Below, in pieces: positions 4,769 through 61,790 of a DNA stretch of 64,000 bases. Position 1 is the first letter of the stretch, and each line of letters begins with the position of its first letter. The position numbers and the translations under genes were made by a program. Below the pieces are notes generated by a model. It had not been told where the DNA came from. It made no database searches and worked only from the letters and a program-made list of their open reading frames with translations. Source of the stretch: Trueperaceae bacterium (GTDB taxonomy: Bacteria; Deinococcota; Deinococci; Deinococcales; Trueperaceae); the NCBI GenBank assembly GCA_965215565.1, contig CBDCDZ010000004.1:768001-832000 (forward strand), read 5' to 3'.

Positions 4769-5017
4769 TAAGTCCAAATAGACTCGAGTAAGTCTCGTCC
4801 CTCACGTAAGGTGGGCTTGCGAAAAGTGTCCGAACCCATCGATCATATAGGGTTGATGCTCCTTGCTCATTCGGCTTTTTGCTCATTCGCTGGTAGAGGG
4901 CTCGAGCCTGGTTTCGCGCCACAACCAGGATGCCTCCATGAGTATGAGTTGCAAGACTCTTGTGATACGTGTTTTCGGCGTTCAGTTAACTGAACACTCG
5001 AGAGAGAACACTCGCAG

Positions 5018-5533
5018 CTACCTCGCGGGCTCCCACACGACGCCGATATTTTTCAACCGCTCCGAGAGGTCTGACGCCGAGAGAGGACCCGATTTGATCT
5101 CTCGCACTACACCTTCAGCGTCTATAAAAATAGTAGTCGGGACGCCGAACACCTCGTAGCGACGCAGCACATCCGCCGTGGTGTCGAGGTCCAGTTCGGC
5201 GCGTTCGCGGCGAGTGGGCTCGAGTCCCGCCCTTACTGTAATCCCGTGTTCTTCTAAATATGCCGCTGCCGCCTCCGCACTCTCGCTATTGTTGACCAGC
5301 AAAAACGCAACTTCCCCTAAATCGCTGCTCACCCTCTGGAAAGTAGGGAGTTCCTCCAGGCAGGGCAAGCACCACGTCGCCCAGAAGTTGAGCACGGTGG
5401 GCGTACCCGTGAAGTCAGCCAGCGAGACCCTCCTCCCCGCCCGGTCAAGGAGCGCGAAGTCGGGTGCGGGCTCACCTACCTCTTGCGCGGATACGGACGC
5501 GAAAACGAAAAGGATAAGTAGGGAGCGGCGCAT
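5018..5533 (-). CDS. TlpA/ResA-family thiol-disulfide oxidoreductase
   Basis: Signal peptide, APDFAL, LNFWATWCLPC (CxxC), GVPTTIFID. Confidence 0.9.
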   Translation of the reverse strand: MRRSLLILFVFASVSAQEVGEPAPDFALLDRAGRRVSLADFTGTPTVLNFWATWCLPCLEELPTFQRVSSDLGEVAFLLVNNSESAEAAAAYLEEHGITVRAGLEPTRRERAELDLDTTADVLRRYEVFGVPTTIFIDAEGVVREIKSGPLSASDLSERLKNIGVVWEPAR

Positions 5534-5536
5534 ACC

Positions 5537-43168: not shown

Positions 43169-46100
43169 ATGAATGTGGACGAAACCAGAATAGTTAATCT
43201 GAAACCAGCCATTGATCAAATTAGGCAACGGCTCCATAGCGGGCAGGCGGCAGCTATGGTCGGAGCTGGCTTCAGCCTCAACGCCACAAAGAAATCAAAG
43301 GATGCCCCGAAGTTTCCGCTATGGAGCGACTTAACGGATCAAATTTTCCATCAGGTATATCCAGATTTTCCTAAAGACAACGACCATTTGAGCCACGAAC
43401 AGATCGCGTCCAAAGCGCGAAAGACATCTGATTTCTTGAGGCTCGCCCAAGACTTTGAGAATAACGATAGAAGTAAGTTAGATGCATTTCTCGAAAAAGC
43501 TATACCTGACAGAGACTACAACCCGGGAGAGCTACATAAGCAACTCCTGAACTTGCCCTGGGCTGACATCTTCACGACAAACCAGGATACGTTGCTCGAG
43601 AGAACCACTGGCTTCATTCAGCGGTATTACAGCGAAGTTTTGTCAGAAAAAGCCTTATCTTCTGCCGCACCCCCGCGAATTGTCAAGTTGCACGGAACTC
43701 TAGGGCACAACAATTATATCTTCACGGAACGCGACTTCGACAACTATCCTACCCACCATGAAGCGTTCGTCAGCTACGTCCAGACTTCACGGGCGATCAA
43801 TACGTTTTGCCTTTTTGGTTTTTCTGGTGATGACCCTAACTTCAAGAAGTGGAACAATTGGGTCTTGAATGTTATGGCAAATCACGCACCTCAGGTGTAC
43901 CTCATCGGCCTTCTTAACCTAAGTAAACAGGATAAAAATTACTGGCGAGACAGGAAAGTCGTTCCAATAGACCTCTCAGTCCTTTTCCAGCCAGGACAAA
44001 AGCCAGACCATGCGCTTGCCCTCGAATGGTTTCTAAACGAACTCCGAGACGAAAAGGGAGGGTCAGTCGTTGAAAAAGACGGCACGGAAGAAAGCGAAGA
44101 TGATGCGCCACTTCTCTCTTGGCCTAATGTACCGGGAGCGGCCAACACTAGACTTTACATGCCTGAGCCTTACGGAAAGGACCTGACGCATGATCAGCTA
44201 AAGGAGATTGCATTGCACTGGCGTAAGCAGCGGTTGTCCTATCCCGGCTGGCTCATTACTCCGCGTGCAAATAGAGAAAATTTGTGGTCTCTAACAGAGA
44301 TGTGGGTTGATCCAGTCTTCCAAGCTGCGCAAGATATGGATGTATCCGAAGCTATCTTAGTGCTTCATGAACTGTGCTGGCGTATTCGTCAATCGCTATT
44401 CCCTTTTCTTATCGATCATGCCAAAATCATTGCTGACAGGCTCGAAACTCTTAATCCGTTTCCTGATAACCCTGAATTAAGCGGCTCTGAAGTTGTACGC
44501 GGCAACGAAGCATTTGCTGAGCTGGACTGGAAGGTGTTGGAAGAGGCTTGGCTCGAGCTTGCTTTCGTGGTGGCGCAAGAGGCTAGAGAGGACCTAGACG
44601 AGCAGAGATTCACTGTATGGATGACAAGATTGGAGAGCGTCATCCCTAAAAATGGCGACTGGTATCACCGTTGGCACCACGAACAATGCTTAATGGCGCT
44701 CTATAAGTTAAACCAGAACAGCCTCGAGCAGCATCTAGGTGAATGGATCGTTCCCGAAGCAGATTTCGTTTGGTCACTCAGGAAGTCTGCCCTCTATGCT
44801 GAGCTAGGGCAAATCAAAACGGCAACGAAGTCTTTGGAGAAGAGCCTAACGACAATTGAAGAGGCCAATGAGAAGGAAGAAGACATACACATAGGACTTC
44901 TTTCTGCGGAAAGTTGGACACTATTCGCCCTCAACGGTATAAAACGGGCTGAAAGAATTTTTCCTAATGACACAGAGTGGCAATATAAATATTCCGCTCG
45001 CCGAGAAGCACTCAAAGCGTACAGATGCGACCCCGGTGACGAGATAGATTTCCTAAGCCAAAAGGTAAGCGGCCTGCTCCCTCAGGAGAAACCAGAAGAG
45101 ACCATCAAGCATGAATTTGACCCTGGAAGGGTGACAACGACAAAGCACTTCGGACATCCATCGTCTATCGTAGATAGGCGTCACGCCTTTGCGCTGCTAA
45201 CCCTACCTGAGCACGCTGGTATTCCTGTGCGCAGCGGCAGCGTGCGGTTTTTGAAGAATGCAGAGCAAGCGGCACAGTGGATTTGGCCTTCTGCCCCTTT
45301 GTGGGCGTTAAGTGCATATATCCGTAATGGTTACGACCACAATAAGCGGGTTGATCAGTGGCTTACACGGGTTGAGGTTGCGGGTATAGCGCAAGGTGTC
45401 GCTGATGCCAGCTTCCGCATGTTCGTCCCTGCACTAAAGCAAGTGATAAGATTATTGCCTACCGAACCGCCGAGACGGAGCAGCTTTTCAGAAGAGATAG
45501 TTGTCGCCCTTGGGGAAGTGCTTTCTCGCTTAACGGTCCTCTTCTCTCCGCAGCAACTTGAAGAGCTTTTGGATGTCACTTTAGCGATGTACGAGAGCCC
45601 GGCGTTCCAAAAGGATTTTCGCCTTTACAGTGTAGTTGAGAAGTTTTTAAGGCGTGTCTTGCTAGCCCTCCCGAATACCGAACTTACCCAGCGCCTACCG
45701 GAAATTCTAAGCCTCACCTTTCCTGGAGATAAACACTCCCTAGTTGACGACATGGCGTCAGGAAACTGGCCCGAGCCCGTCAATTACATCCAATGGGATT
45801 TGCTAAATGAAGAGCTCATTGATAAGAAGGGTTCCGAGTGGGTTAGCGTGATAAGCAAGCTCACGACTGACGTTGAACATGGGTCTTCTCAAGTTAGGTC
45901 TCGAGTGGCGAGCAGGTTAGAGAAGCTTTCAAGTGCAAACCTATTGACCTCCGACCAGAAACAAGCCTTTGGCAAAGCGCTCTGGTCAAGGACATACGAG
46001 ACCCTAGACCTTCCTTCAGAAACGGAGTTCACCCCTTACGGTTTTATGGTCCTGCCAGCTCCCGAGCCCAGACGCGCAGTTGAAAGCCTGCGCTCCTACA

Positions 46101-47101
46101 TAAAGGACAACGATTTCCCTCGACTCTTCTCCTATGAGGAACCTAAAGCATCTCCCGTTAGTCATTTGACAAGGGAGGGCAAACCCGACCTCTACTACAG
46201 CCGTAACCGTAAAACAGAGAATCTCATCAATGCTTGGAAATATGCTTCAAAACGTCCCATAGATACTCTCGTGAGAAAAGATGCTTACCTTATCGAATGG
46301 TCGCCTGAGGAAGCCAGCGAACTCTTCGATAAGATTCTCACCTGGTGGCGGTGCGAAAAAGATGACGTTTTAGAAGCGAAGGTAAAAATCGCTTTTAAAG
46401 ACGAAATTCAGAATAGGATTCATGAGGTTCTTTATATCGTCGGGCATACGATTCTTCCACATTTCAAGGCGAGTGAAGAGAGCGAGAAAAGCAAGGTTTT
46501 CGACTTTTTAGAGGACCTGGAGAATTCTGATTTCGTTGTTCTCTCACCTCTGCCGATGACACTCTATCTAAACAGTTCGAAAGAGCGGCAAAGGCAATTA
46601 ACAGACAAACTCCGTAGGGGTATTCATAGCCAAGCTAAAGAAGAAGTCAGTGAAGCTCTGCAAAGTACGATGGATTGGTTAGCCTACGCCGCACTTGGTG
46701 AGCTTCCCGAAGCACCCCAGACTGTCCTCGAAGACGTCGCTCTAAAATTGGTTGCTCGGCGTGGACCTAAGCTTCGGTCTACAATTCAGATACTGACTTG
46801 GATTATCAGATTTGTCCCGCAAGTTCTAGGTGAGGTTTCGCTGAGATACATTCTCATTGCCCTTCAGTTTTTGCTCGAGGAGACGACAACCGCGCACGAG
46901 ATAAAATCAGCTCACACCCCTATTTCGGCTGAAGAGATACCTCACCTCCGAGTAGAGGCGGCTAAATTAGCGAGTGAGCTTTACCGCTATTACGGCGAGT
47001 GTGGAAGAGAAATGCCTGAGATACTGCAAGAGTGGCAGCAGATATCTTTTGAGGACCCACTTCCAGAAGTAAGAAAAGCTTTTTCTACGACTCAGAACTA
47101 G
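43169..47101 (+). CDS. Large SIR2-domain protein (DSR-like candidate anti-phage NADase)
   Basis: MVGAGFS, IFTTNQD, IVKLHG, FGFSGDDPNF in the first ~290 aa, then ~1000 aa of helical sequence with no Walker A seen. Confidence 0.8.
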   Translation: MNVDETRIVNLKPAIDQIRQRLHSGQAAAMVGAGFSLNATKKSKDAPKFPLWSDLTDQIFHQVYPDFPKDNDHLSHEQIASKARKTSDFLRLAQDFENNDRSKLDAFLEKAIPDRDYNPGELHKQLLNLPWADIFTTNQDTLLERTTGFIQRYYSEVLSEKALSSAAPPRIVKLHGTLGHNNYIFTERDFDNYPTHHEAFVSYVQTSRAINTFCLFGFSGDDPNFKKWNNWVLNVMANHAPQVYLIGLLNLSKQDKNYWRDRKVVPIDLSVLFQPGQKPDHALALEWFLNELRDEKGGSVVEKDGTEESEDDAPLLSWPNVPGAANTRLYMPEPYGKDLTHDQLKEIALHWRKQRLSYPGWLITPRANRENLWSLTEMWVDPVFQAAQDMDVSEAILVLHELCWRIRQSLFPFLIDHAKIIADRLETLNPFPDNPELSGSEVVRGNEAFAELDWKVLEEAWLELAFVVAQEAREDLDEQRFTVWMTRLESVIPKNGDWYHRWHHEQCLMALYKLNQNSLEQHLGEWIVPEADFVWSLRKSALYAELGQIKTATKSLEKSLTTIEEANEKEEDIHIGLLSAESWTLFALNGIKRAERIFPNDTEWQYKYSARREALKAYRCDPGDEIDFLSQKVSGLLPQEKPEETIKHEFDPGRVTTTKHFGHPSSIVDRRHAFALLTLPEHAGIPVRSGSVRFLKNAEQAAQWIWPSAPLWALSAYIRNGYDHNKRVDQWLTRVEVAGIAQGVADASFRMFVPALKQVIRLLPTEPPRRSSFSEEIVVALGEVLSRLTVLFSPQQLEELLDVTLAMYESPAFQKDFRLYSVVEKFLRRVLLALPNTELTQRLPEILSLTFPGDKHSLVDDMASGNWPEPVNYIQWDLLNEELIDKKGSEWVSVISKLTTDVEHGSSQVRSRVASRLEKLSSANLLTSDQKQAFGKALWSRTYETLDLPSETEFTPYGFMVLPAPEPRRAVESLRSYIKDNDFPRLFSYEEPKASPVSHLTREGKPDLYYSRNRKTENLINAWKYASKRPIDTLVRKDAYLIEWSPEEASELFDKILTWWRCEKDDVLEAKVKIAFKDEIQNRIHEVLYIVGHTILPHFKASEESEKSKVFDFLEDLENSDFVVLSPLPMTLYLNSSKERQRQLTDKLRRGIHSQAKEEVSEALQSTMDWLAYAALGELPEAPQTVLEDVALKLVARRGPKLRSTIQILTWIIRFVPQVLGEVSLRYILIALQFLLEETTTAHEIKSAHTPISAEEIPHLRVEAAKLASELYRYYGECGREMPEILQEWQQISFEDPLPEVRKAFSTTQN

Positions 47102-47107
47102 CGAGGG

Positions 47108-49651
47108 TCAAGCGAGAAGGCGGTGCACCACCGCATCGAGCAACTGCTCCGCGTCCCCCTGCGCCCGCTTTAGCCCCTCCTCCAGCGCGTCAATCAGCCC
47201 CATAAGCTCATCCACCTTAGCAACGATGCGTTTTTGTTCGTTGAGGGGCGGGAGAGGAAATACAAAGTTTTTTATGGACTTAACACCTACGTTTGCCTGA
47301 GTGGTTTTATTAGGCTCTGTTGAAATTCTTCAGTACTAGTTGTTAGAAAAGGGCATGAGCGACGTAAGAATCAAGGCTAAGCAGTGGACTAAAATCAAGG
47401 CATTCTTAGATGAGAACCCGCAGGTGTATGTAGGACAGGAGAAGCAGTGCCGTAAATTTGTTGAAGGGGTACTGTGGATGTTGCGTTCGGGTGCACAGTG
47501 GCGACTTCTCCCCCCGAGGTATGGCAATTGGAACAGTGTGTATAAGCGTTTTGACAGATGGAGTGAACGAGGCATCTGGAAGGAAATGTTTGAGCACTTT
47601 GCTGATGATCCCGATATGGAAAGTGTGATGATGGACGGCAGTGTCGTGCGAGCCCATGCGTGTTCGGCAGGTGCGCCCCATAAAAAAGGGGTCAAGAAGA
47701 ACAACACCTCGGCTATAGTCGCGGCGGGTTCAGTAGCAAGATACACGTCTTAGTCGATGCTTTAGGCAATCCGTTGCGGCTCTTACTCAGTGCCGGACAA
47801 GCGCACGAAGCGCCTTATGCCAAAGCCTTACTCGCAGACTATGAGGTTGAATTTGTGTTTGGTGACAAAGCCTATGACGCTGAAGCTATCCTCACGACTA
47901 TCGCTGAGATGGACGCCGAAGCGGTCATTCCACCCAAAAGCAACCGCAAAGAGCAGCGCGATTATGACGAAGAACTGTACAAAGAGCGTCACCTAGTTGA
48001 ATGCTTTTTCAACAAGCTCAAGCAGTATAGGCGCTGCTTCTCACGCTTCGATAAGTTCGCTCGTAACTACCTCGGCTTCTTACACTTCGCCTCGGCTCTC
48101 ATCTGGTTGCGGTGAAATGTCAACACAACCTAGTATATCTTGCGATCTCATTTTTTACAAGTCCAGACAACGAATAAAAGTAGATATATCTTGGCTCTAC
48201 GTGTCCCTTTAAGTTCTTGACAACTGCGCACGAGTAAGACGCAAGAAAGTCTATATCCGTTTCAACGAGTCCATTCTCTCCAATAGTGCCATAACGGGGG
48301 AAATGATGTCATCTCTCTTAGGCTGTATCTTACGACTCAACCGCTCAAAGTCGGTATTAGAAATTTTCTTTGCTGTTGAAAAGTTGATCTCGTTGTCCCC
48401 CGTAAAATCTCGAGGAGATACATAAGGTACGCCTTCTCTTACCTCTTCCGGCATCTTATGATCTACATCTCCTATTTGAAGCGAAACTTCATCCCATCTA
48501 CACCAGCGCCAAGTATTTGGTATTCGTATGGAAGTTTCGTCAGAACTAACTGGAGTTAAACCCTTTGTTTTTCGTATCTTTCCCTCTTCAACTAATTTTG
48601 CTTTCTCAGCTTCTATGCTCTCGAGCAACACTCCCGCCGGTTCATCCTCCGGGTCTTGGGGCACGAGCTTCCCCTGCACCGCCAGTTGCAACACCGCCTT
48701 GCGCAACGCCGCGACGCCCCCCGGCGCAGCGCACAAGAGGTCGAAGTTGTCCCGCACGCGCCGCCAGCTCCCCGCAAACGTATCCGCGTCCTCTGCGCTC
48801 AGGAGAGAGCTTAGCGCCGCGCCGCCGAACCTCATGCGGGCGTCCCTTTTGGCGCGTCCTTGCGCCTCGAGCCTGTCTATAAGCCCCATAAGCTCGTCCA
48901 CTTTGGCGACGATGCGTTTTTGTTCCTCGAGGGGTGGGAGGGGGAACAGAAGTGTATTTAGCTTGCCCTGATAAATCGCTGCAACATTAGTCGTATTTGA
49001 TTTGAGAAGGTCTAGTAGACTTTTACCCGAGGGAGACTGAAACCAGAGATTAGCAAAAGCATTATTAACACCCGGTCCGAAAATAACTTTAAGAATATTG
49101 TTGTTGAACAGCCAAATTTCTCCTGTCGGATTGAGAAATACACACGTTTTACCTACCAGCTCGAAGCTATTTCTCGTGTTGAAAAGAAAATCACCTTCAG
49201 ATAACTTGTACTTCTCAAGCTCTTCCTGGCTGGCATCGACTTTGGTAATGTCGCTAAAATCACACAACCCTGTTGTAGAAATATTGTTCATTTTGAAATA
49301 TGGGTAGTTGTTGCTTTCAGATTGTAAACGTTTTGCGCGTTCTAAGCCTGTGTGAGAATCGAGTTTTATAGATTCGAAATCTACCCAAACCCAAGATTGT
49401 GGAAGACAGAATGGACCATCAACCGACTCTGGAGTGAATAACTTTGATTTCCGAATCTGCTTATTCTGTATCTGGTTATATTTCTCTAACGTTAGTTTGC
49501 GAACTAACGCTGAGGCAGACTCATCACTCGGGTCTTGTTCGACTAACTTCCCCTGCACCGCAAGCTGCAACACCAGCTCGCGCAGCTTCTTGGCGGCGTT
49601 GGGCGCGTCGGTCAAGAGGTCGAAGTGGCGCTCTAAGGTCTCAGGCGTCAT
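47108..49651 (-). pseudogene. hsdS: Type I R-M specificity subunit, interrupted in TRD2 by a 1-bp frameshift (~48300) and an IS5
   Basis: Repeated LQLAVQGKLV.QDP.DE and PLPPL.EQKRIVAKVDELM. The second frame continues PRYGTIG...EIARY, then after the IS NKTTQANVG...VHRLLA* ending at 47108. Confidence 0.9.
47313..48130 (+). mobile_element. IS5-family (IS427-like) element, apparently intact
   Basis: TIRs GGCTCTGTTGAAATT / AATGTCAACACAACC with TA duplication (47311-12, 48131-32). Transposase 47355-48115 is in two frames joined at A6G4 (47682-47691). Motifs MDGS, GDKAYD, RHLVECFFNKLK. Confidence 0.92.
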
Positions 49652-50006
49652 CGTCAGCGCGTCCTTCTTCAGTTTGGTCTAACGCGCTTTGCAGCTCGGG
49701 CAAGAGCACAGGGATTTCGTTCTCGACCACATCCCACACGGTCTCCAAGCGGATGCCGAAGTAGTGGTGCGCCAGCACGTCACGAAACCGCGCTAGGCTG
49801 CGCCAGGGGATAGCGGGGTGCTGCTCGCGCACCTCGGCGGGGATGTTTTTGGCAGCTTCCCCCATGATTTGCAGGTTGTGAAGGGTCGCGTCTATGACCT
49901 GTTCGTCGCCTCGGAACCTCTCAAAGTCGTAGCCCTGAGTATAGCGCTGTACCTTTTGCGCTGCGCCCCGCATGTCCTCCAAAAAGAGGCGGGTGCTACG
50001 CGGCAT
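49641..50006 (-). CDS. HEPN (DUF86/HepT-like) RNase toxin
   Basis: LQIMGEAAK, IPW, RDVLAHHY (RX4HXY). Confidence 0.9.
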   Translation of the reverse strand: MPRSTRLFLEDMRGAAQKVQRYTQGYDFERFRGDEQVIDATLHNLQIMGEAAKNIPAEVREQHPAIPWRSLARFRDVLAHHYFGIRLETVWDVVENEIPVLLPELQSALDQTEEGRADDDA

Positions 50007-50307
50007 GGATGGTCAGTAAGTCCTGCTGTACCTCTTCGGTGACGTGAGGGTTCAGCGTGCCTTGCGTCGCCAAGTCCACCTTGCAGCCTAAGAGGTCTTC
50101 CAGGTAGAGCAGTGCGCCCGTGTACTGCCGAAAGGTCGGAGCGCTGCCGAAGTCCGCCAAGAGGTCTACGTCGCTCTCGGCGCTGCGCTGGTCTCTAGCG
50201 GTTGAGCCGAAGAGCGACAAGCTGCGAACGCCGTAGCGGGATTCTAGGACGTTAAGGTGTTCGCGCAGCGTTTGGATGATGTGTTCGCGCTTTAGCTCAC
50301 CTGTCAT
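49996..50307 (-). CDS. Minimal nucleotidyltransferase (MNT) antitoxin
   Basis: LFGSTARDQRSAESDVDLL (GSX10DXD), LEDLLGCKVDL. Confidence 0.9.
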   Translation of the reverse strand: MTGELKREHIIQTLREHLNVLESRYGVRSLSLFGSTARDQRSAESDVDLLADFGSAPTFRQYTGALLYLEDLLGCKVDLATQGTLNPHVTEEVQQDLLTIHAA

Positions 50308-50536
50308 AATTTGTGCGGCGCTCCATCCCCCTTAGCAGTTCCTTCTGCGCCTTCGGGTCGTGCATAGGCTCCGCGAACGCTTCCCAGAGGGCGATGGTCT
50401 CTTCGATGCGTTGCGCCTCTGTATTCTGGTCTATGTCCTGACCCGCTTCGATGTCTTCCAATGCAGCGGCGAGTCTGAAAAGGGCACTATCGTCAAGCTG
50501 GTCTATCTTTCTGCGTAACTGTTCTCTCACGGTCAT
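50297..50536 (-). CDS. Small hypothetical protein coupled to hsdM and MNT
   Basis: 79 aa, overlapping both neighbours. Antitoxin-like helical N-terminus MTVREQLRRKIDQL. Confidence 0.6.
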   Translation of the reverse strand: MTVREQLRRKIDQLDDSALFRLAAALEDIEAGQDIDQNTEAQRIEETIALWEAFAEPMHDPKAQKELLRGMERRTNYDR

Positions 50537-52002
50537 AACGCTACCTCTTCACCCTCCATCTTACCCGCTTCGGGCTCCAACGCCGCCATCAGCTCCCGTT
50601 TAAGCGCGTCCCGCGTCTCAGCGAGGTCGGCTAAGTGGGCTTGATACTCCGCTAAGAGGTCGTCGGGGTCGCCTAGAGCTTCCTCAACCGTATGCGGGTT
50701 CTTGATGTCCAGGTTGTAGCCGTTCGCCTTGATGTCCTCCACCGGAACGCGCCAGGCGTGGGCGTTCTCTTCGCGCTTATCCCACCACGCCTTCTCCGGG
50801 GCAAACTCGTCAATACGCATCGGCTTGGTCTTGGAGTACGACTTATAGCCCTTGGGGTAGGGGTGCTCGTAGTACCAGACCTCTTTCGTGGGTCTGCCTT
50901 TGGTGAAGAAGAGCAGGTTCGTCTTGATGCCCGTGTAGGGGTTGAAGACGCCATTGGGCAACCTCACGATGGTGTGCAGGTCGCACTCGTCCAAAAGCCG
51001 CTCTTTGATGCGCGTCTTGACGCCCTCACCGAAGAGTGTGCCGTCTGGCAAGACGAGCGCGGCGCGTCCGCCAGGTTTCAAGAGGTGCATGATGAGGACT
51101 AAGAAGAGGTCCGCCGTCTCGCGGGTGCGGTAGGTCGCGGGGAAGTTCTGCTCGATGCCGTCTTCCTCGGTGCCGCCGAAGGGTGGGTTGGTGAGCACCA
51201 CGTCTACGCGCTCGCTCGGGGCATAGTCGCGCAGAGGACGGGCTAAGGTATTGTCGTGACGAACTGAAGAGGGCACGTCAACGCCGTGCAAGAGCATGTT
51301 CGTCACGCAGAGCATGTGCGGAAGTTGCTTCTTCTCGACGCCGTGAATGGAGGCTTGTAGGGTCTCCCTATCTTCTGGTGTTTGGACGTAGGTGTCGCGC
51401 ACGTGCTCGAGCGCCGCCGTCAAGAAGCCGCCTGTACCGCACGCCGGGTCTAAGACCGTCTCGCCCAGCTTAGGGTCGGTCATGTCCACCATGAACTGTG
51501 TCACGGCTCGAGGTGTATAGAACTCACCCGCGTTGCCCGCGCTCTGCAAGTCTTTGAGGAGTTGTTCGTACAAATCGCCGAAGAGGTGCTGGTCTTTGGA
51601 GCTGTTAAAGTCGATCTCGTTCAGTTTATTGACCACTTGGCGAATCAGCGTACCGTTCTTCATGTAGTTGTAGGCGTCTTCGAAGACGCTACGGACGACG
51701 GTGGCTCGAGCGTCCCCGGCGGGCAAGTTCTTCAGCGCCGGGAAGAGGTCGGCGTTGACGAAGTCCAAGAGGGCGTCACCCGTGATGCCCTCGTCGTCGC
51801 TCGCCCAACTCTGCCAGCGCAGCCGCTCGGGGATGGGTGAGGTGTAGGCGTCGTCGAACATTTCGTGCTCTTGTTCGCGGTCGTCGAAAATTTTTAAGAA
51901 GAGCAGCCAGACGAGTTGGGAGATGCGCTGGGCGTCGCTATCTACCCCGGCGTCCCGGCGCATGATGTCTTGGATGCTTTTGACGGTGGTGCTGAGGGAC
52001 AT
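50533..52002 (-). CDS. hsdM: Type I R-M methyltransferase subunit
   Basis: GEFYTPR, LDPACGTGGFL, TNPPFGG, LPDGTLFG. Confidence 0.95.
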   Translation of the reverse strand: MSLSTTVKSIQDIMRRDAGVDSDAQRISQLVWLLFLKIFDDREQEHEMFDDAYTSPIPERLRWQSWASDDEGITGDALLDFVNADLFPALKNLPAGDARATVVRSVFEDAYNYMKNGTLIRQVVNKLNEIDFNSSKDQHLFGDLYEQLLKDLQSAGNAGEFYTPRAVTQFMVDMTDPKLGETVLDPACGTGGFLTAALEHVRDTYVQTPEDRETLQASIHGVEKKQLPHMLCVTNMLLHGVDVPSSVRHDNTLARPLRDYAPSERVDVVLTNPPFGGTEEDGIEQNFPATYRTRETADLFLVLIMHLLKPGGRAALVLPDGTLFGEGVKTRIKERLLDECDLHTIVRLPNGVFNPYTGIKTNLLFFTKGRPTKEVWYYEHPYPKGYKSYSKTKPMRIDEFAPEKAWWDKREENAHAWRVPVEDIKANGYNLDIKNPHTVEEALGDPDDLLAEYQAHLADLAETRDALKRELMAALEPEAGKMEGEEVAL

Positions 52003-52097
52003 GGGGTATCTTATAACGTGGGCTCGAGGTATGATCGCGACTTCTTTTTGTAGTGTGAAAGCGCTTGCTGGCTCACGTATAATTGAACCTATCTGCT

Positions 52098-55000
52098 ATG
52101 GACGGCTCTTTAGATCAACTTGTCAACTTCCCTCCCGAAGTGCGCGAAGCGCTTCAAAACGGCGCTCTCAGTTTCGCAGTCAACGTTCTCAGTAATGACT
52201 ATGTGAAGCAGCGTGCGTACATGCAGGACGAAAGGCTCAAACGCCTCAAGTTTGAAGCGGTTCCTGGAGACTACGATATTGAACGCGGCGTCCGAAAGGC
52301 TCAACTTTGGGCTACCTATAAGGTTGCTAGACATGCCGCAGAGACAGAGCCTCGTCACCAAGACTACTTCAACGGCATTGCAGACATGCTCCGAAGCGAG
52401 ATAGATAAGGTTGATAGAGACGACTATACCTTTACGAACATGCCGAGCCTCGACAAAGGAGAGATCAAGAAACTTCTACCTGGCGTCAGTATCGGTGAAG
52501 ATGAATTAGGCTGGCGACTCAAACTCACCACGTTGGCTGAACTCAAACAACGTTTTGGTTCAGAGCAAGCATTTGATACCTTGCAGCGACTTCTTCTCGG
52601 CGGATGGCAGGAGGGGGAACGTTCATTCGATTGGTTCGGTACTTTTTCAACATACTTTGCTGAGGAACGCAAAGACAATCCTGATCTAAGAGCCGCATTC
52701 GATGGATATGTATTAACCGAGATGGCGAATCAGCTCGAGCTAAACCATAGAGATGTACTCGCTCGATTAGAAGGAATCACCGACCGCTTAGCGCAAGTTA
52801 TACGGGAAGACGGTGCATCAACTCGCGCCGAGCTAAAACGCACTGCCGAGGGTGTAGGTACGCTTCTCGAGCAATCAAAGCCGAACGAGTGGTTTTTACC
52901 CCCCGGTGCATTGACGCCTGACGCCTCTCACCTCCCCCGGATTAAATCTGATTTCGTTTTTCCCCTTTCGCTAGGGGTTGAGGAAACGAATCACTCTACC
53001 CGCGATGGTGTCCAAATACTAACTGAAACTCGTACGTACGGCGAAAGCAGGGAGTTATACCGGAGGCGGCGCGTTCCCAAGCTCGCTGACACTTTTTTAG
53101 GTGAATGGGCAAGACAGCCGGGGTTATATGTAGTCACTGGAGAGCCAGGTGGTGGTAAGACCACGCTGCTAGGGTACTGGGCTAAAGAGCTGCATCAAAC
53201 TTATTTAGAAGATGACTCTCGAGCTTTCCCCCTCTATGTTTCCCTGCGGGAAATGCGTGGCACTGATAAAACTATTCTTCACGACCAGGGGGTACAACGG
53301 TACTTCAATCGTAAAGGATTGTGGGGCTACGAGATAGATGTGAGTCCTTACTGGAGCGGCGAGCGCAGAGCAATTTGGCTTCTTGACGGTTGGGATGAGC
53401 TAGAACCAACCGAGCAGGAAGATTGGCTAACTATCGCACGGTCGCTAAAAGGAACTGTGATTGTTAGCTGCCGAGCAGCCCAGTACCAAGGCAACTTAGG
53501 TCCTGACCACCTCATTATAGGGCTGAGCAAAGAGGAACAAGCGCGGTTCCTCAAAGGGCTCATACCTTCTCTTCGTATAGAAGACTCTACCGCCTACGCT
53601 AACGCTGACACAAGCTGGCGTGACGAGTTACTAGGCGAGGTTGAAAAACACCATCATCTACGCGAATTAGCTAGTAACCCCTTGCTACTTACTTTGATTG
53701 CACGGACGAATCCACCCGGCAAGGTTCAATTGCCTAGAAACCGAGAAGCATTCTACGGAGAAACGTTCGACTATATAGTGAAGCGACGCTTACCCGACCT
53801 AAATTATCGGGAGAAGCGCGACCTCAAAGCTGCACTCAAAGCAGTTGCAAGCCGGGCGCAGCTTGACCTTGTGATCAGTGAAGATGTTTTCTGGTCAGCG
53901 CTTGATGAGGTAAATGCATCTTCAAAAGTCGAGGAGCGGGCAAAAAGTTGCGGTATTCTTCAACCTAAAGGTAGCGGATACGAGTTTCTACACGCTACTT
54001 TTCAAGAATGGTTTTTAGCCCAAACCCTAGCCCAAAGTGGCGCATTAGTTGATGCTTTAGAAGCTCATTGGCGGAAGCCGAATTATGAGGAAACGTTAGC
54101 GCTCTTGTGGAGTATGGAAGCACCAGATGAGCGCTTCGCTGCCACAAAGTTTTTGCTTAACGTAGGGTGCCAATCTCAGGTCAATCAAGGTGAAGAAACA
54201 CAAGGTAAATATAAACGTAGTGGTATACGTACAGCTTTACACCTATGGCACCGAAGCGGGCTTCCCGTCGAGTCAAAGAGTCTGGAGCAGCTTTGGAACG
54301 AATTGCTAAGTAGTAATACTCCCAACAATCTTCGCGTCCTTGCAGCGGCAAGAAATGATAGGACACCCGTCGAAATACTCAAGCTAATGAAAGATAAGGT
54401 TGAGGAAGTGCGTTTGGATGTCGCTAGCAACCCAAACGCTACCGAGATGATGTTGTTAGAGCTAATGAAAGATGAGATCGCGATGGTGCGTCGGCGTGTC
54501 GCTAGCAATTCAAACGCCACTGAGCTGATGCTATTAGAGCTAATGAATGATAAGGATATGATGGTGCGTCGGCGTGTCGCCAGCAACTCAAATGCCACCG
54601 AACCTATACTGCTTGAGCTTATGAAAGATGAAAATGGAGGGGTGCGCCAGTATGTTGCCAGTAACCCAAACGCTACCGAGGCGGTGCTGTTAGAGTTGAC
54701 GAAAGATAAGGATAAACACGTACGTCAGAATACAGCCAGCAATCCAAACGCTACCGAGGTGGTGCTGTTAGAGCTGATGAATGATGAGGATGTGATGGTG
54801 CGTTGGCATGTTGATCGCAATCCAAACGCCACCGAATCTATGCTGCGTGAGCTTGTGGAAGACGGAGGAGTGCATTGGAGTATAGCCCGCAATCCAAACG
54901 CCGCCGAAGCAGTTCTGCTTGAGCTAATGAATGATGAGGATAAGCATATACATCGGAATGTCGCCCGCAACTCAACTACCACCGAGGCAGTGCTGTTAAA

Positions 55001-55310
55001 GCTGATAAAAGATAAGGACAAATATGTACGTCGGGGTGTCGCCCGCAACCCAAATGCTACCGAGACAGTTCTACTTGAGCTAATGAATGATGAGGATGAA
55101 TATGTGCGTCAGAACGTCGCCAGCAACTCGAACGCCACCGAGGTGGTGCTATTAGAGTTGACGAAAGATAAGGATACGATGGTGCGTCGGAATGTCGTCA
55201 GCAACCCAACCACTACCGAGGCAGTGCTGATCAAACTAACAAGAGATGAGAATAAGCATGTGCGAGAAGCTGTGGCTACTAATCTAAACACCTGCCTCGA
55301 GTGGCTCTAA
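52098..55310 (+). CDS. NACHT/STAND NTPase with C-terminal LRV/HEAT-like repeats (bacterial NLR-like)
   Basis: Walker A GEPGGGKTT, Walker B WLLDGWDE, VSCR, NPLLLTL, YEFLHATFQEWF. Repeats from 54408. Confidence 0.88.
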   Translation: MDGSLDQLVNFPPEVREALQNGALSFAVNVLSNDYVKQRAYMQDERLKRLKFEAVPGDYDIERGVRKAQLWATYKVARHAAETEPRHQDYFNGIADMLRSEIDKVDRDDYTFTNMPSLDKGEIKKLLPGVSIGEDELGWRLKLTTLAELKQRFGSEQAFDTLQRLLLGGWQEGERSFDWFGTFSTYFAEERKDNPDLRAAFDGYVLTEMANQLELNHRDVLARLEGITDRLAQVIREDGASTRAELKRTAEGVGTLLEQSKPNEWFLPPGALTPDASHLPRIKSDFVFPLSLGVEETNHSTRDGVQILTETRTYGESRELYRRRRVPKLADTFLGEWARQPGLYVVTGEPGGGKTTLLGYWAKELHQTYLEDDSRAFPLYVSLREMRGTDKTILHDQGVQRYFNRKGLWGYEIDVSPYWSGERRAIWLLDGWDELEPTEQEDWLTIARSLKGTVIVSCRAAQYQGNLGPDHLIIGLSKEEQARFLKGLIPSLRIEDSTAYANADTSWRDELLGEVEKHHHLRELASNPLLLTLIARTNPPGKVQLPRNREAFYGETFDYIVKRRLPDLNYREKRDLKAALKAVASRAQLDLVISEDVFWSALDEVNASSKVEERAKSCGILQPKGSGYEFLHATFQEWFLAQTLAQSGALVDALEAHWRKPNYEETLALLWSMEAPDERFAATKFLLNVGCQSQVNQGEETQGKYKRSGIRTALHLWHRSGLPVESKSLEQLWNELLSSNTPNNLRVLAAARNDRTPVEILKLMKDKVEEVRLDVASNPNATEMMLLELMKDEIAMVRRRVASNSNATELMLLELMNDKDMMVRRRVASNSNATEPILLELMKDENGGVRQYVASNPNATEAVLLELTKDKDKHVRQNTASNPNATEVVLLELMNDEDVMVRWHVDRNPNATESMLRELVEDGGVHWSIARNPNAAEAVLLELMNDEDKHIHRNVARNSTTTEAVLLKLIKDKDKYVRRGVARNPNATETVLLELMNDEDEYVRQNVASNSNATEVVLLELTKDKDTMVRRNVVSNPTTTEAVLIKLTRDENKHVREAVATNLNTCLEWL
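54408..55307 (+). repeat. In-frame 78-bp (26-aa) tandem repeat array
   Basis: Eleven units of VRxxVA(S/R)NPNATExxLLELxxD(E/K)Dxx (one is 24 aa) plus a partial twelfth. Confidence 0.92.
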
Positions 55311-55342
55311 CCCCATCTAATTTACCAGCGCACTTAACATCT

Positions 55343-57691
55343 CTAAGCCGCGTAAAGCTCCATCTCCAATCCCTGCAACGCCGCCAAATACTGCTGCTTC
55401 CCCCCAAAGTGCTTGATAAGCTCAACAGGCGACCCCAACGCACTAATCGGCTGCACCTTGAGCACACTGAAGTCTTCAATGCTCTCAATCCCAGCGTCCG
55501 CATACTTCTCCAAAAGCGCGTCCAACACCTTCCGCGCCTCTTCGCTGTACGACGAGAAGTACCCCCGTTTGCGGACACTCTCCGCCCGCTCACGCCGCGT
55601 CAAGGGCGGCTGGTCGTAGACGATATGGCAGATGAGGTCGAAGGGGTCGTAGTCCTTGCCGACCTTCTTCTGAAGCTCTTCGAATAGGATGCCCTGCTCT
55701 TCTAGCTCAGCGATGATGGCGTGTTTCTGCTCGGTGCGCGTCCAGGACTGTAAGAAGGACTCCAAGGTGCTGTACTCGCGCCTCACCGCCTTGCGGGTGT
55801 AGTCGGTGAGCGACTCGGTGATGAGCTTGCCGCCCGGTCCGTAATACTGCACGCGCTCGGCGATGACGGACACGTCGATGTCACGCACCGTGTACTTCCT
55901 GCGCCGTTCACCCTCGCCGATGGAGAAGGCGATGTCGGGCTCGAGTTCCTGCGCTTCCTCGCCCTGGTCTTCATCCTCGGGCGGTACAGGCGACTCGTCC
56001 GTCTCAGGCTCGTAAATCTGCACGGGCTCCCCGTCGAAGTCGGGGTCGGCGAAGAGTTCGGTCGCCTTCTTGAAGTCCATGATGGTGAAGAACTGTTTGC
56101 CGTAGTCCTCGGCGACCCGCGTGCCTCGTCCGATAATCTGCTTGAACTCGGTCATGGAGTTGATGCGCCTGTCTAAGACGATGAGCTTGCAGGTCTGCGC
56201 GTCTACTCCGGTAGTCATGAGCTTGGAGGTCGTGACGATGACCGGGTAGGGCTCCCAGGGCAAGATGAAGTTGTCCAGCTCGGCTTTCCCCTCGGCGTCG
56301 TCCCCGGTGATGCGCATGACGTACTTGTAGTTCTCGGCGACCTTATCCATGTTCTCGTTGATAAGCGCTTGACGCATCCTGCGGGCGTGGTCGATGTCCT
56401 CGCAGAAGACGATGGTCTTACCCATGCGGTCGGTTTGTCTGAGGTAGTCCGAGACCTTCTTGGCGACGAGGCGGGTGCGGGGCTCTAAAACGAGGTTTCG
56501 GTCGTAGTCCATCTGGTTGTAGATGCGGTCCTCTATTTCCACGCCGTAGGAGTCGCGCTGCCCCGCCTCGGGTCGCCAGCCCGTAAGGTCCTTGTCGATG
56601 TCGATACGCACGACCTTGTAGGGCGCTAAGAAGCCGTCGTTGATGCCCTCTTTGAGCGAGTAGGTGTAGACGGGCTCGCCGAAGTAGTGGATGTTCGATA
56701 CGTCTGCCGTCTCTTTGGGTGTCGCCGTCAAGCCTATCTGCGTCGCCCCGGAGAAATACGCCAAGATTCTGCGCCAGTTCGAGTTCTCCTTAGCACTCCC
56801 TCGGTGGCACTCGTCAATCACGATGAGGTCGAAGAAGTCGGGGGAGAACTGCGTGTAGATGTCGGCGTCGATCTCGTTGCCCGTCACCGCTTGGTAGAGC
56901 GAGAGGTAAATCTCGTAGCTCTTGTCCACCGTGCGGTTGCTGATCTTCGTCATCGCCCCGCCGAAGGGCTTGAAGTCGTTCGTCTTGGCTTGGTCTACCA
57001 AGATGTTGCGGTCGGCGAGGAAGAGGATGCGCTTCTTCGTGCCTGACTTCCACAAGCGCCAGATGATTTGGAAGGCGGTGTAGGTCTTGCCCGTCCCTGT
57101 TGCCATGACGAGGAGGATGCGGTCTTGCCCTTTGGCGATGGCTTCGACGGTGCGGTTGATGGCTTTGACCTGGTAGTAGCGCGGCGCACGCCCCGAGCCG
57201 TCGTCGTAGTAGGGCTGCACGGCGACGCGCTCGACCTCAGTGTCCTCCAAGCCCTTCCAGGCTTTGTAGCGCCGCCAGAGTTCGTCGGGGGAGGGGAACT
57301 GCTCCAAGGTCAGCTCTTGCTCTGGTATAGCAGCATTACCCATGCGGTCATGGAAGATGAACCCATCGCCGTTGGAAGTGAAGATGAAGAGTACGCCCAG
57401 CATCTCGCCGTATCTGAGGGCTTGCTGCATCCCGTCGCCTACACCGTGCGTGTTGTCCTTCGCTTCCACGATGGCGAGCGGGATGTTGGGGCTGTGGTAG
57501 AGGATGTAGTCGGCGCGTTTGGTCTCACCGCGCTTGGCGGTCTGTCCCCGCACGATGATGCGCCCTTTGGTAAACGTGACCTCTTCGCGTATTTGCGTCT
57601 GCACGTCCCAACCCGCCTGCTTGATAGCGGGGGTGATGTACTTGGTGCAGATGTCGCGTTCGGATAGGGCTTGTTTGTTGATGTGCGTCAC
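55343..57691 (-). CDS. hsdR: Type I R-M restriction subunit (EcoAI/EcoEI-like)
   Basis: ADY...IVEAK nuclease motif, [29 protein letters not shown], EcoEI-type C-terminus. Confidence 0.95.
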
Positions 57692-57956: not shown

Positions 57957-58205
57957 ATGGCTCATAGTTTGGAACTCGACGAAATGCTCGTCACGGTTGC
58001 CTGCCGCGTTAAGACCATGCGCACACAGGGTGGCATGATGCCTGAAGACCTAGCCGATAAAGCGCAGATCGACTTACCTGTCGTACACGAGATTGAGGCG
58101 GCGCGGCGCAACATGACCTTAACGGAACTCTACCGGCTCGCCAGGGCTTTCGACGTCTGGCCCAGCGACCTCGTTGCAGACTTTCCGGGGGATGCGTCAC
58201 AATGA
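57957..58205 (+). CDS. Xre-family HTH protein (divergent recognition helix)
   Basis: RVKTMR...EDLADKAQID...HEIEAARRNMTLTELYRLARAFDV. Confidence 0.8.
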   Translation: MAHSLELDEMLVTVACRVKTMRTQGGMMPEDLADKAQIDLPVVHEIEAARRNMTLTELYRLARAFDVWPSDLVADFPGDASQ

Positions 58206-58209
58206 CGTC

Positions 58210-58461
58210 ATGGCTAATCAAAAGAGGGCGTTCAGTCCCGAGTTCGAGGCGTTTAGAGACGCAGTGGGCGTGCGCGTCGCAGAAGTTCGTAGAGACAAAG
58301 GACTGACCCAAGCTGAACTCGCAGAGAAGACGGAGTTACAGCGTACTCACATCAGCCGCATCGAGAACGGTCAGAAGGACCTGAACCTATCGACGCTCTA
58401 CAGATTGGCGAAAGAACTCGAGGTGCGCCCTAGCTACCTTATCGACGTAGCCTTTCCTTAG
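58210..58461 (+). CDS. Xre-family HTH protein (C-protein-like)
   Basis: GLTQAELAEKTELQRTHISRIENGQKDLNLSTLYRLA. Confidence 0.9.
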   Translation: MANQKRAFSPEFEAFRDAVGVRVAEVRRDKGLTQAELAEKTELQRTHISRIENGQKDLNLSTLYRLAKELEVRPSYLIDVAFP

Positions 58462-58522: not shown

Positions 58523-59056
58523 TTGCCGATAACGCTCAACGGTATTTCCGTTCATGCCCGCTCTGACGACGTTGAACGTCGAGCGCTCGCACGATGCGGT
58601 CATCTCTTCTTGAGGAAGCCGATAACTTTGTTGCTCGATGATCGACCCGGCTACGCTTTAGAGGCGCTTCCTTCGCTAGCTAGACCCATATTGCTTGTCA
58701 CCGCGAACCGCTCGCCCCACTACCTCCTGGACCTGCTTGACGAGCAGCCGGAGGGTCTGCTGGTGACGCGAGCACTGCCGCCGAATCTAATTTGCCACCT
58801 TATGCGGGTAGCAGCAGGGGAGCGTTTCTACGAGGGTCCGCCGCCTAGTCAAACGCTCCTGACACCGCGCGAGCGCGAGGTGCTGCGACGCACGATGTAC
58901 GGGGAGAGCATCGAGGCATTGGCGCGGTCGCTCGGCATCATTCCCTACACCGCAGGAGAACACCTCAGGCACATCATGGAGAAACTCGGTGTGGAGCGCA
59001 GTGTCGAACTGGCTTTGGCTTACTTCGCTGGGGACACAGCCCAGCTTGTCGTATGA
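58523..59056 (+). CDS. LuxR-type HTH regulator with degenerate receiver-like N-terminus
   Basis: VAAGERFY...LTPREREVLR...HLRHIMEKLGV. No canonical receiver signature seen. Confidence 0.7.
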   Translation: MPITLNGISVHARSDDVERRALARCGHLFLRKPITLLLDDRPGYALEALPSLARPILLVTANRSPHYLLDLLDEQPEGLLVTRALPPNLICHLMRVAAGERFYEGPPPSQTLLTPREREVLRRTMYGESIEALARSLGIIPYTAGEHLRHIMEKLGVERSVELALAYFAGDTAQLVV

Positions 59057-60432: not shown

Positions 60433-60959
60433 ACAACGATTCTACTAGATACTAGTCTTATGTGCAAAATAAGAAACTTTTCGAGACATATTGGAGAAGT
60501 CGTTTATCCACTCTCAAACTCGAAAACTCACTTAATAACGTAGTAATTTCAAGTACCACGCGGCAGAAAAGATGAGAGTAAGTACGTCCTAGACGCATTT
60601 GACAGCGTTTATGGAAGTCTGCTATGACTGTGTTAAAGGGCTAGGTGAAAAGAATGTAATAAGTACTTTTAGCGGCTTTTCAATATAGGAAATCTCGGTT
60701 ATTTGCAGTAACCGAGAAATCCAGATGATCTAATTTGCTTCCGACCTAGTGAGCAGCTTAGACCATCTGGACAGGTGCCGTCAACCCTCGAGAAAGGGAG
60801 TAAGGATGCTGTCCAAGTTAGGAAAAAACTTTTTCGTAGACGCTAATCTCAAGCAAAACGGAGTGCAAATTTACCAAGGGCTCGTTGCTGACGCCTCCAT
60901 TGCTGCTGTAAATGCGGCCTCGCGCGGGTGCAAACCTCTACGGCAGGACCAGGGGCGTC

Positions 60960-61790
60960 ATGCCACAAGGTAAGAAGCGTATGGATGCTGCAGAAGCGCA
61001 AGCAGCCCAGGATAAGGCGATTGCGAAGTGGCGTAAGACAGGCGATGGTCATGGTCAAAACTACGAACCGTGGCTCACCGTTAGAAGAGTGCCGTCGCAC
61101 GGCCGCGTCAGCCGGGTTCTTGGGCGAGTCACAGGCCGCGTGCACCACCTGATGAGCGACCTGGAGACGAACACGTTTTACGTCCTCGACGCTAGCGACA
61201 ACGTTCTCGACATCCGTGAGCAGTACCCCTTATTGCCGTTGGAGGAAACTCTCGAGATTGCAGAAGCCAACACCCTCAAGCATCCCAAACACCCCCGTTG
61301 GAAAGGACCAATTATCATGACGACTGATTTTCTAGTTACACGTGGCGGCGACCTCGGAGATTATCAGGAGGCGTGGTCCGTTAAGCCTTCGTCGGTGCTC
61401 AGTAACAAGCGAGCGCTCGAGAAACTTGAAATCGAAAGGCTGTTCTGGCAAGCTCGGTCAACACCTTGGTATCTGATTACAGAGCGTGAACTGCCCAAAG
61501 GACTGCTGCACAACCTGCGCTGGCTCGCCGCCGCGAGAGACCTGAGCGACTTCCACGTTCCTGCCGACAGGCTCGAGGGTGTACTAGACGAACTCTACCT
61601 CACAATCACTGTCTCCGACGAGCCGCTGGCTAGTTTGTGCAGCCAAATGGACGGGCGGCTCGGGTTACGTGCCGGGACGTCTCTGACAGCGGTGCGACAC
61701 GCTCTCGCGACGAAACGCTGGCACGTAGACCTCACGAAGGCGATTGACCCCGACCGGCCCTCACTGGGTCTCACCCGTATCGATGGATAA
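60960..61790 (+). CDS. tnsA: Tn7-like TnsA endonuclease
   Basis: G.G.G..Y.PWLTV..VPSHGR, TGRVHHLMSDLE, DIREQYPL, MTTDFLV, VKP, EKLEIER.FW. Confidence 0.93.
   Translation: MPQGKKRMDAAEAQAAQDKAIAKWRKTGDGHGQNYEPWLTVRRVPSHGRVSRVLGRVTGRVHHLMSDLETNTFYVLDASDNVLDIREQYPLLPLEETLEIAEANTLKHPKHPRWKGPIIMTTDFLVTRGGDLGDYQEAWSVKPSSVLSNKRALEKLEIERLFWQARSTPWYLITERELPKGLLHNLRWLAAARDLSDFHVPADRLEGVLDELYLTITVSDEPLASLCSQMDGRLGLRAGTSLTAVRHALATKRWHVDLTKAIDPDRPSLGLTRIDG

Follow-up and report, generated by a model that had tools for sequence, protein, structure and literature searches.

A gene for an NLR-like protein lies inside a type I restriction-modification (R-M) operon of a Trueperaceae bacterium (GenBank assembly GCA_965215565.1). 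It was found in a stretch of 64,000 nucleotides (contig CBDCDZ010000004.1, positions 768,001 to 832,000 of the forward strand), here called the window, to which all positions without another label refer. The gene occupies 52098..55310 on the plus strand, antisense between hsdR and hsdM, and its product, NLR, consists of an all-helical N-terminal domain (N-domain), followed by a NACHT NTPase and then by LRV/HEAT-type repeats. On balance, NLR is probably a standalone abortive-infection sensor that joins a new helical N-domain to a NACHT module and an LRV/HEAT solenoid, and whose gene is an antisense insert at a cargo hotspot, the hsdR-hsdM junction.

Architecture of the NLR protein

The open reading frame (ORF) starts with ATG at 52098, ends with TAA at 55308-55310 and encodes 1070 aa; its longest reading starts with TTG and covers 52083..55310 on the plus strand (1075 aa). 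A promoter-like site, GTGAAA-17-TATAAT (52055..52083, plus strand; 10/12 matches), lies 15 nt 5' of the ATG, but it is weak evidence for a promoter since such sites are not enriched around the gene (4 versus 3.1 in shuffled sequences). No terminator-like sites were found in 51800-55600. A full-length AlphaFold model, made with a 26-sequence alignment, had a mean pLDDT of 78 and a pTM of 0.67, with pLDDT values of 75 to 96 across the NACHT (aa 330-720) and repeat parts. When this model was searched against the PDB with Foldseek, NLRP9 (8.1e-10), NLRP3 (3.6e-9), NLRC4 (4.1e-9) and NOD2 (5.6e-9) were matched, all with a probability of 1.00, and further matches were obtained with Avs4 (E 2e-7) and with the HEAT scaffold of the PP2A A subunit.

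The NACHT module (aa ~325-720; 53070..54257, plus strand), delimited by Pfam, by relatives and by the fold match, comprises a P-loop NTPase with helical and winged-helix parts. Pfam NACHT (PF05729) matched aa 345-441 with an E value of 2.8e-8 and 34.2 bits (cut-off, 26.7). Walker A motifs have the form GxxxxGK[ST] and NACHT-type Walker B motifs the form hhhhDGxDE. NLR has both, GEPGGGKT as Walker A (aa 348-355; 53139..53162, plus strand) and WLLDGWDE as Walker B (aa 427-434; 53376..53399, plus strand). Of these residues, G348, G351, G353, K354 and D430 do not vary among the 26 aligned sequences. An LHATFQEW motif inside the module contains H632 (codon at 53991-53993, plus strand), the presumed counterpart of NLRC4 H443. 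Queried with the NACHT part, phmmer retrieved no PDB sequence. By its Pfam score, its Walker motifs and its NLR-like fold, NLR is a NACHT-clade STAND NTPase.

The C-terminal part is an LRV/HEAT-type solenoid (54330..55307, plus strand) of about 12.5 two-helix repeats with a cap ending in CLEWL, as delimited by Pfam, Tandem Repeats Finder, repeat anchors and the model. Pfam HEAT scored 66.8 bits (versus 23.5) and LRV (PF01816) 55.5 bits (versus 21.6), and HEAT_2 and LRV_2 were matched as well. Tandem Repeats Finder reported a period of 78 nt at 54382-55220, with 10.8 copies and 70% matches; the mean nucleotide identity among the units is 68%. Twelve repeat anchors were located at aa 778-1062, spaced by 26 aa ten times and by 24 aa once, and therefore the array consists of 11 full 26-aa units and a C-terminal cap. 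With 25 short helices between aa 745 and 1060 in the full-length model, the anchored repeats are preceded by one or two degenerate units. Residues N5, E10, L13, L16 and D19 are constant across all units, and the variation between units is concentrated at positions 1, 11, 22, 23 and 26 (5/26 positions; 1.7 to 2.5 bits). Judged from its sequence, the array would thus present a diversified, sensor-like face on a fixed scaffold. Several repeat units of the homologue P0003 have the same sequence, which suggests a recent duplication of units. A first-pass annotation of this DNA, made from its letters and translated ORFs, had described an NLR-like NACHT protein whose sensor is a tandem array of at least 11 variable 26-aa units; the Pfam matches to NACHT, LRV and HEAT, the Walker motifs, the NLR fold matches and the counted units all agree with this description.

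The N-domain and the NACHT-LRV chassis have different histories

The Pfam scan left aa 1 to ~320 of NLR without any match. With aa 1-661 as the query, an exhaustive HMMER search gave 1,120 proteins at E<=1e-3, of which 95 passed a threshold of 1e-10 and 21 one of 1e-30, but nearly all of the 1,120 alignments begin only at aa ~275-345, and they mostly cover aa ~280-661. When 29 of these relatives were scanned with Pfam for their N termini, proteins of the NACHT+LRV type were found to carry CHAT (P0010), XRE-type HTH (P0014, P0015, P0017 and P0019-P0021), Trypsin_2 (P0018), Peptidase_C14 (P0025 and P0029), DUF676 (P0033), TIR_2 (P0037 and P0043) or DUF4062 (P0060) in this place. The entire architecture of NLR was found in a database of 5.8 billion clusters only in P0003 (57% identity) and P0004 (50%). 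In a sample of 364 genomes of the phylum, the NACHT-LRV module was present in one genome, the window's own (E<=1e-15).

The N-domain, on the other hand, occurs in 5 of the 364 genomes, all of them Trueperaceae, and on a different STAND chassis, NB-ARC+TPR, in G005, G277, G009 and P0155. In G024, it is found on a 389-aa ORF that stops just past the P-loop. A search with the N-domain profile yielded two additional TPR-STAND proteins, P0154 and P0155, and the fragments P0005 and P0123 were found as well. The NACHT-LRV protein P0008 has a shortened N-domain in front, equivalent to aa 113-280 (hhalign probability, 97.5%; E 4.9e-12), and hhalign of the N-domain profile with P0157 revealed no relation. 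Overall, the N-domain is rare: apart from NLR, it was found in a small number of STAND proteins of Trueperaceae and in two or three NACHT-LRV proteins from metagenomes. Scans of genome contigs for relatives of NLR found no NACHT-type homologue and only two Trueperaceae NB-ARC loci, and two scans of metagenome contigs for NLR homologues found nothing. Since unrelated STAND chassis share the N-domain, at a position otherwise taken by TIR, caspase, CHAT or trypsin domains, it is most simply read as the output (effector) module. A literature search for NACHT together with LRV or "leucine-rich repeat variant" retrieved nothing specific to bacterial NACHT-LRV proteins.

The gene was also looked for in sequencing runs. 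Pieces of the NLR gene within 52149-55029 are present in run X3, which is a marine metagenome of a separate study (2019), and differ from the window at 0 to 18 sites per 200 to 350 bases; in the repeat region, the piece at 54242-54566 has no difference and that at 54695-55029 has one. Therefore, the NLR gene or its host is present outside the source sample. Runs X4 and X5, which bear the same species label, contain next to none of the words of the stretch, which is no proof of absence.

Structure and possible output of the N-domain

The N-domain (aa 1 to ~270; 52098..52907, plus strand) is all-alpha, as delimited by the models and by the homologous domains on NB-ARC+TPR proteins. The domain model and the full-length model share the same layout, with a core at aa 58-~210 and a long helix at aa 195-259 that runs toward the NACHT module. 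The core (aa 58-210) is an all-alpha helical bundle with pLDDT values mostly of 70 to 94 in the domain model; aa 1-57 are poorly defined (pLDDT below 50), low in charge and moderately hydrophobic. This first segment is low in charge and rich in Gly, Ala and Ser in all eight family members compared, where the Kyte-Doolittle mean of the most hydrophobic 18-mer ranges from 0.65 to 1.39; it falls short of the hydrophobicity of a transmembrane helix. Across seven N-domains, the only invariant polar residues are R66, E148 and R152; the other invariant residues are L70, L149, F153, F187, A200 and G203.

The first-pass annotation had noted an unrecognized N terminus of about 270 aa, and it stayed unrecognized in Pfam, PADLOC, NCBIfam, the PDB and Foldseek. 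Pfam at E<=10 on six members of the family found no known domain and no NACHT N-terminal helical (NNH) family, a PDB profile search and Foldseek with the N-domain gave no match, and no HeLo, MLKL or CC fold was among its Foldseek or VIA structural matches. A protein-language-model search pointed weakly from the window N-domain to NNH3, NNH1 and NNH2 (0.81 to 0.87) and from the G005 N-domain to NNH2 (0.92; 168 shared features). Hidden Markov models (HMMs) did not confirm these leads: the NNH3 HMM found nothing in the window's genome (G000), and the NNH2 HMM found nothing at the N-domain loci of five genomes at E<=1. Membership in an NNH family is therefore not supported, and the language-model matches are no more than leads. 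A weak match to HetE-N (E 0.02) was seen in one member only and was not used. The N-domain is encoded only once in the window's genome, with no other copy to serve as a homotypic adaptor partner.

Since there are almost no conserved polar residues, we take the N-domain to be non-enzymatic, and we favor a helical effector that would be activated by clustering or oligomerization. By analogy with HeLo, Bell, CC and MLKL-4HB domains, such an effector might attack the membrane, a tentative proposal. It is also conceivable, though doubtful, that the N-domain is an enzyme or a nucleic acid- or protein-binding module of a new fold that does not act on membranes, in a protein that would still be a standalone defense NLR. 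R66, E148 and R152 could make up a binding or catalytic site, and both the missing structural match to HeLo, MLKL and CC domains and the limited hydrophobicity of the N-terminal segment would fit such a module. However, three conserved polar residues are very few for an enzyme of ~200 aa, and the model is a plain helical bundle. A non-enzymatic helical effector is therefore preferred.

The hsdR-hsdM junction is a cargo hotspot

In the 364-genome sample, a search with HsdM matched 21 genomes at E<=1e-100, including the window's own. The loci of 17 of the other 20 were examined (G018, G182 and G188, with partial matches or very short contigs, were left out), and the stretch of G139 lacks hsdR, which leaves 16 junctions plus that of the window. 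Seven of the 17 junctions are contiguous, with gaps of 27 to 254 bp between hsdR and hsdM (G009, G327, G173, G155, G037, G119 and G082), and the other ten bear cargo in inserts of 0.7 to 3.9 kb. The insert of the window has 3341 bp and contains the NLR gene, antisense to hsd. DarT and DarG are found in G334 (~1.8 kb, antisense; PADLOC 3.7e-66 and 3.1e-131), IetA and IetS in G095 (3925 bp, same strand; PADLOC 3.4e-73 and 1.7e-29) and a HEPN-like protein with PDC-S11 in G066 (1896 bp, same strand; PDC-S11 6.6e-139). G113 (719 bp) and G097 (713 bp) have a gene for a 213-aa HEPN pEK499_p136-like protein on the same strand as hsd; the G113 copy, the one scanned, gave an E value of 1.5e-5, just under the cut-off. 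The insert of G060 (2901 bp) encodes an nSTAND3-like P-loop protein in antisense orientation (4.9e-5, under the cut-off) and a trypsin-like protease on the same strand (Trypsin_2, 1.1e-16). G115 has an antisense Gp49-like + HTH pair (826 bp; weak matches, E about 1e-3), and single ORFs without a family are found in G190 (824 bp, 176 aa, antisense) and G128 (1030 bp, 264 aa, same strand).

The NLR gene is missing from all 16 other junctions, 9 of which hold unrelated cargo. Since the cargo in 10 of the 17 junctions is varied and largely related to defense, the hsdR-hsdM junction is a recurrent landing site, and the NLR gene is one of its occupants. Run X1, in which the whole stretch is present, has one contig that connects 52006 to 55373 via 38 other letters, a hint, in a run that holds many variants, of a relative with an empty NLR site. 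A similar joint in run X3 (52002 to 55625) was discarded as unreliable because its shorter side has just 24 letters.

Some of the other occupants deserve mention in their own right. The two slot proteins of G060 (locus L059, G060:C1 5450-8253) have 501 aa (the nSTAND3-like P-loop protein) and 283 aa (the trypsin-like protease), and the ORFs without a family match lie at 5386-5916 of locus L052 (G190; 176 aa) and at 4786-5580 of locus L054 (G128; 264 aa). By their embedding, these two ORFs and the nSTAND3-like protein with its protease are candidates for new defense genes.

The operon, the island and the origin of the gene

The hsd operon is on the minus strand. It consists of hsdR (55343..57691; Pfam ResIII, EcoEI_R_C and HSDR_N; PADLOC REase_I, E=0), hsdM (50533..52002; Pfam N6_Mtase, 4.4e-79, and HsdM_N) and hsdS (48251..49651; Pfam Methylase_S), with a mntA-hepT toxin-antitoxin pair between hsdM and hsdS (49641..50307, minus strand; Pfam NTP_transf_2 and HepT-like), whose MntA matches the PADLOC candidate PDC-S09. 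The NLR gene and hsdR are convergent, with 32 bp from stop to stop, and the NLR gene and hsdM are divergent, with 95 bp from start to start, so that the antisense position given in the first-pass annotation was right in coordinates and strands. The same is true of the visibly lower GC content that it had noted. The NLR gene has a GC content of 0.493 (0.486 at third codon positions [GC3]), compared to 0.592 for hsdR, 0.595 for hsdM and 0.581 for the genome. Since the three parts of the gene have similar GC contents, below that of the surroundings, the gene probably arrived whole from a donor of lower GC content. Direct or inverted repeats of at least 8 bp flanking the insert were not found.

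Beyond the hsdS end of the operon is a gene for a SIR2 protein, Dsr2 (43169..47101, plus strand), which PADLOC recognized over residues 10-1303 with an E value of 3.8e-215; the NCBIfam Dsr2 score was 708 bits, under the cut-off of 1400 bits. Dsr2 and insertion sequence (IS) fragments are 5 kb from the NLR gene, and hsdS-hepT-mntA-hsdM also intervene before Dsr2. Synteny with the congeneric genome G002 is lost at the end of a ribonucleotide reductase gene (42883) and regained at G000:C4:898710, and a region of ~88 kb (G000:C4:810883-898710, reaching past the window end) stands where G002 has ~3.7 kb. Therefore, the region is a strain-specific island, as judged from this one comparison genome; it contains Dsr2, the hsd operon with the NLR gene and a TnsA/TnsB-like pair. 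Since its GC content is 0.49 versus 0.59, since it is part of a ~88-kb strain-specific island and since run X1 has a contig resembling an empty site, we take the NLR gene to be mobile.

The neighborhood has further features. A MNT-HepT pair between hsdM and hsdS is also present in the operon of G334 (locus L022, 3999-4638; 55 to 59% identity), which makes this a second embedded slot. Between Dsr2 and hsdS (47340-48115), two adjoining ORFs are the two pieces of an IS4/IS5-family transposase (DUF4096 and DDE_Tnp_1), over which the contig depth in run X1 is much above that of the surroundings, as for a multicopy IS. Two small XRE-family HTH genes (57957-58461; HTH_3, 3.2e-6 and 5.8e-15) are divergent from hsdR and are followed by a LuxR-type regulator gene (58523-59056; GerE, 1.1e-10), and these genes may regulate the operon or the island. 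At 60912-63999, there is a TnsA-like gene (Tn7_TnsA-like_N, 2.9e-17; TnsA_C, 1.6e-12) followed by an open-ended ORF of 752 aa with a weak match to a Mu-transposase C terminus (8.4e-4, under the cut-off); a Tn7-like element may start here, with its cargo past the window end. The gene at 38925-42890 encodes a class II-like ribonucleotide reductase and is split by an intein that contains a homing-endonuclease domain of the LAGLIDADG type (Intein_splicing and LAGLIDADG_3).

Proposed function and alternatives

The NLR gene lies within a type I R-M operon, beside MNT-HepT and Dsr2, in a slot that elsewhere holds DarTG, IetAS and PDC-S11, and from this setting we predict a role in defense. In the mechanism that we propose, the solenoid of 26-aa repeats would use its variable face to capture a phage protein, and this binding would free the NACHT module for nucleotide exchange and oligomerization. 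The clustered N-domains would then kill or arrest the cell; the leading, though tentative, candidate for the mode is an attack on the membrane like that of HeLo/Bell/CC domains.

Several observations weigh against a role in defense. PADLOC and NCBIfam scans assigned NLR to no family in either collection, so that it belongs to none of the defense families tested, and the N-domain loci of the relatives are at best weakly defense-like: the G005 locus has two Uma2/PDC-S03 genes and a type IIG fragment, and the G277 locus has a YhcG nuclease among otherwise metabolic genes. These contexts, which are not clearly defensive, together with the HTH N termini of some NACHT-LRV relatives, would suit a STAND protein, such as a regulator, that has a signaling role outside defense and whose gene came to lie in the hsd operon by chance. 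This is nevertheless unlikely, because the other cargo of the hotspot is largely related to defense, the island is shared with Dsr2, the repeats have a diversified face and TIR, caspase, CHAT and trypsin effectors are found on related NACHT-LRV proteins. In G009, the STAND gene with the N-domain is directly preceded by an ORF of 3,121 aa (locus L013, G009:C37 41-9406), which has no Pfam match at E<=1e-3.

The first-pass annotation had suggested that NLR guards the R-M complex. According to this idea, NLR monitors the Hsd complex or senses Ocr/ArdA and kills the cell when restriction is blocked, as PrrC and Ronin do, which are precedents for hsd-linked backup effectors (10.1101/2023.04.06.535777). 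The gene is indeed physically inside the hsd operon, and a HEAT-like solenoid might in principle bind a DNA-mimic protein. However, the NLR gene is absent from the 16 other junctions, 9 of which have other cargo in the same slot. Likewise, the NACHT-LRV module was found in none of the 363 other genomes of the phylum sample, although 20 of these have this hsdM type, and the N-domain loci of G005, G277, G009 and G024 are outside hsd operons. The opposite strand and the foreign composition of the gene also argue against a guard, which we regard as quite unlikely. Very unlikely, too, is a specific form of the idea, in which the HEAT-like solenoid would detect anti-restriction proteins or a disabled Hsd and the new helical executioner would kill, making NLR a counterpart of PrrC/Ronin.

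At the four other genomic N-domain loci, PADLOC covered 30 of the 46 ORFs and Pfam covered 19. The first-pass annotation had also raised the co-occurrence of homologues with hsd or SIR2 genes; these loci are outside hsd operons, and no SIR2 gene was found among the ORFs scanned. Dsr2 is a self-contained defense system that carries its own sensor and effector. The further suggestion that NLR signals to the neighboring SIR2 protein as its effector is highly improbable, even though both genes are in one island and a domain without evident catalytic residues could conceivably use an external effector, because the SIR2 protein is a full-length Dsr2, because IS fragments and the hsdS-hepT-mntA-hsdM block stand between the two genes and because the scanned ORFs of the other N-domain loci include no SIR2 gene.

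Comparison with known systems

Precedents exist for the tripartite bacterial NLR, for HEAT-type sensors, for helical N-terminal domains and for the embedding of defense genes in type I R-M operons. According to Kibby et al. (10.1101/2022.07.19.500537), bNACHT proteins are, like NLR, encoded by a single gene and have an N-terminal effector, a NACHT module and C-terminal tandem repeats; HEAT repeats are among their sensor types and NNH domains among their N termini, and related NACHT modules retain their sensors whereas the effectors vary. The window N-domain differs from these in that it matches no Pfam NNH model, and NLR matches no PADLOC or NCBIfam model for defense. With the Avs/AVAST proteins, NLR shares the fold match to Avs4, but no PADLOC or NCBIfam model for Avs1 to Avs5 matched it. 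Furthermore, its NTPase is of the NACHT type with LRV repeats, and its putative effector is no known nuclease, SIR2 or protease.

Embedded defense genes are described as frequent in type I R-M systems by Payne et al. (10.1101/2024.01.29.577857), who use the term "guilt-by-embedding"; the main text of that paper never mentions NACHT. TgvAB is a further case of defense genes embedded in a type I R-M operon (PMC11411939), and PrrC and Ronin are hsd-linked effectors in such operons (10.1101/2023.04.06.535777). Like these, the NLR gene lies between hsd genes, in a slot with differing defense cargo in related operons; it differs from these cases in being an NLR gene, and one on the opposite strand. 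In contrast to PrrC and Ronin, a functional dependence of NLR on Hsd has no support.

The membrane-targeting HeLo, Hell, Bell, CC and MLKL-4HB domains are helical and have an N-terminal hydrophobic helix, as described by the Daskalov group (10.1101/2024.11.07.622273). The N-domain resembles these domains in being an all-helical NLR N terminus and, presumably, in being activated by oligomerization; its first segment, low in charge and moderately hydrophobic, may correspond to their first helix. However, it has about 270 aa compared to about 80 to 120 aa, and there is no sequence or fold match, so that the resemblance is one of kind only.

What is new is the N-domain family, which is shuffled between NACHT-LRV and NB-ARC-TPR proteins, the finding of an hsd operon with an NLR gene as its antisense cargo and the documentation of the hsdR-hsdM junction as a cargo hotspot in Deinococcota. 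These findings extend a published architecture and the embedding phenomenon and do not establish a new principle. If the proposed function is correct, an output domain so far uncharacterized would join the repertoire of bacterial NLRs, and its shuffling within one family would provide a clean case for how non-enzymatic NLR effectors kill.

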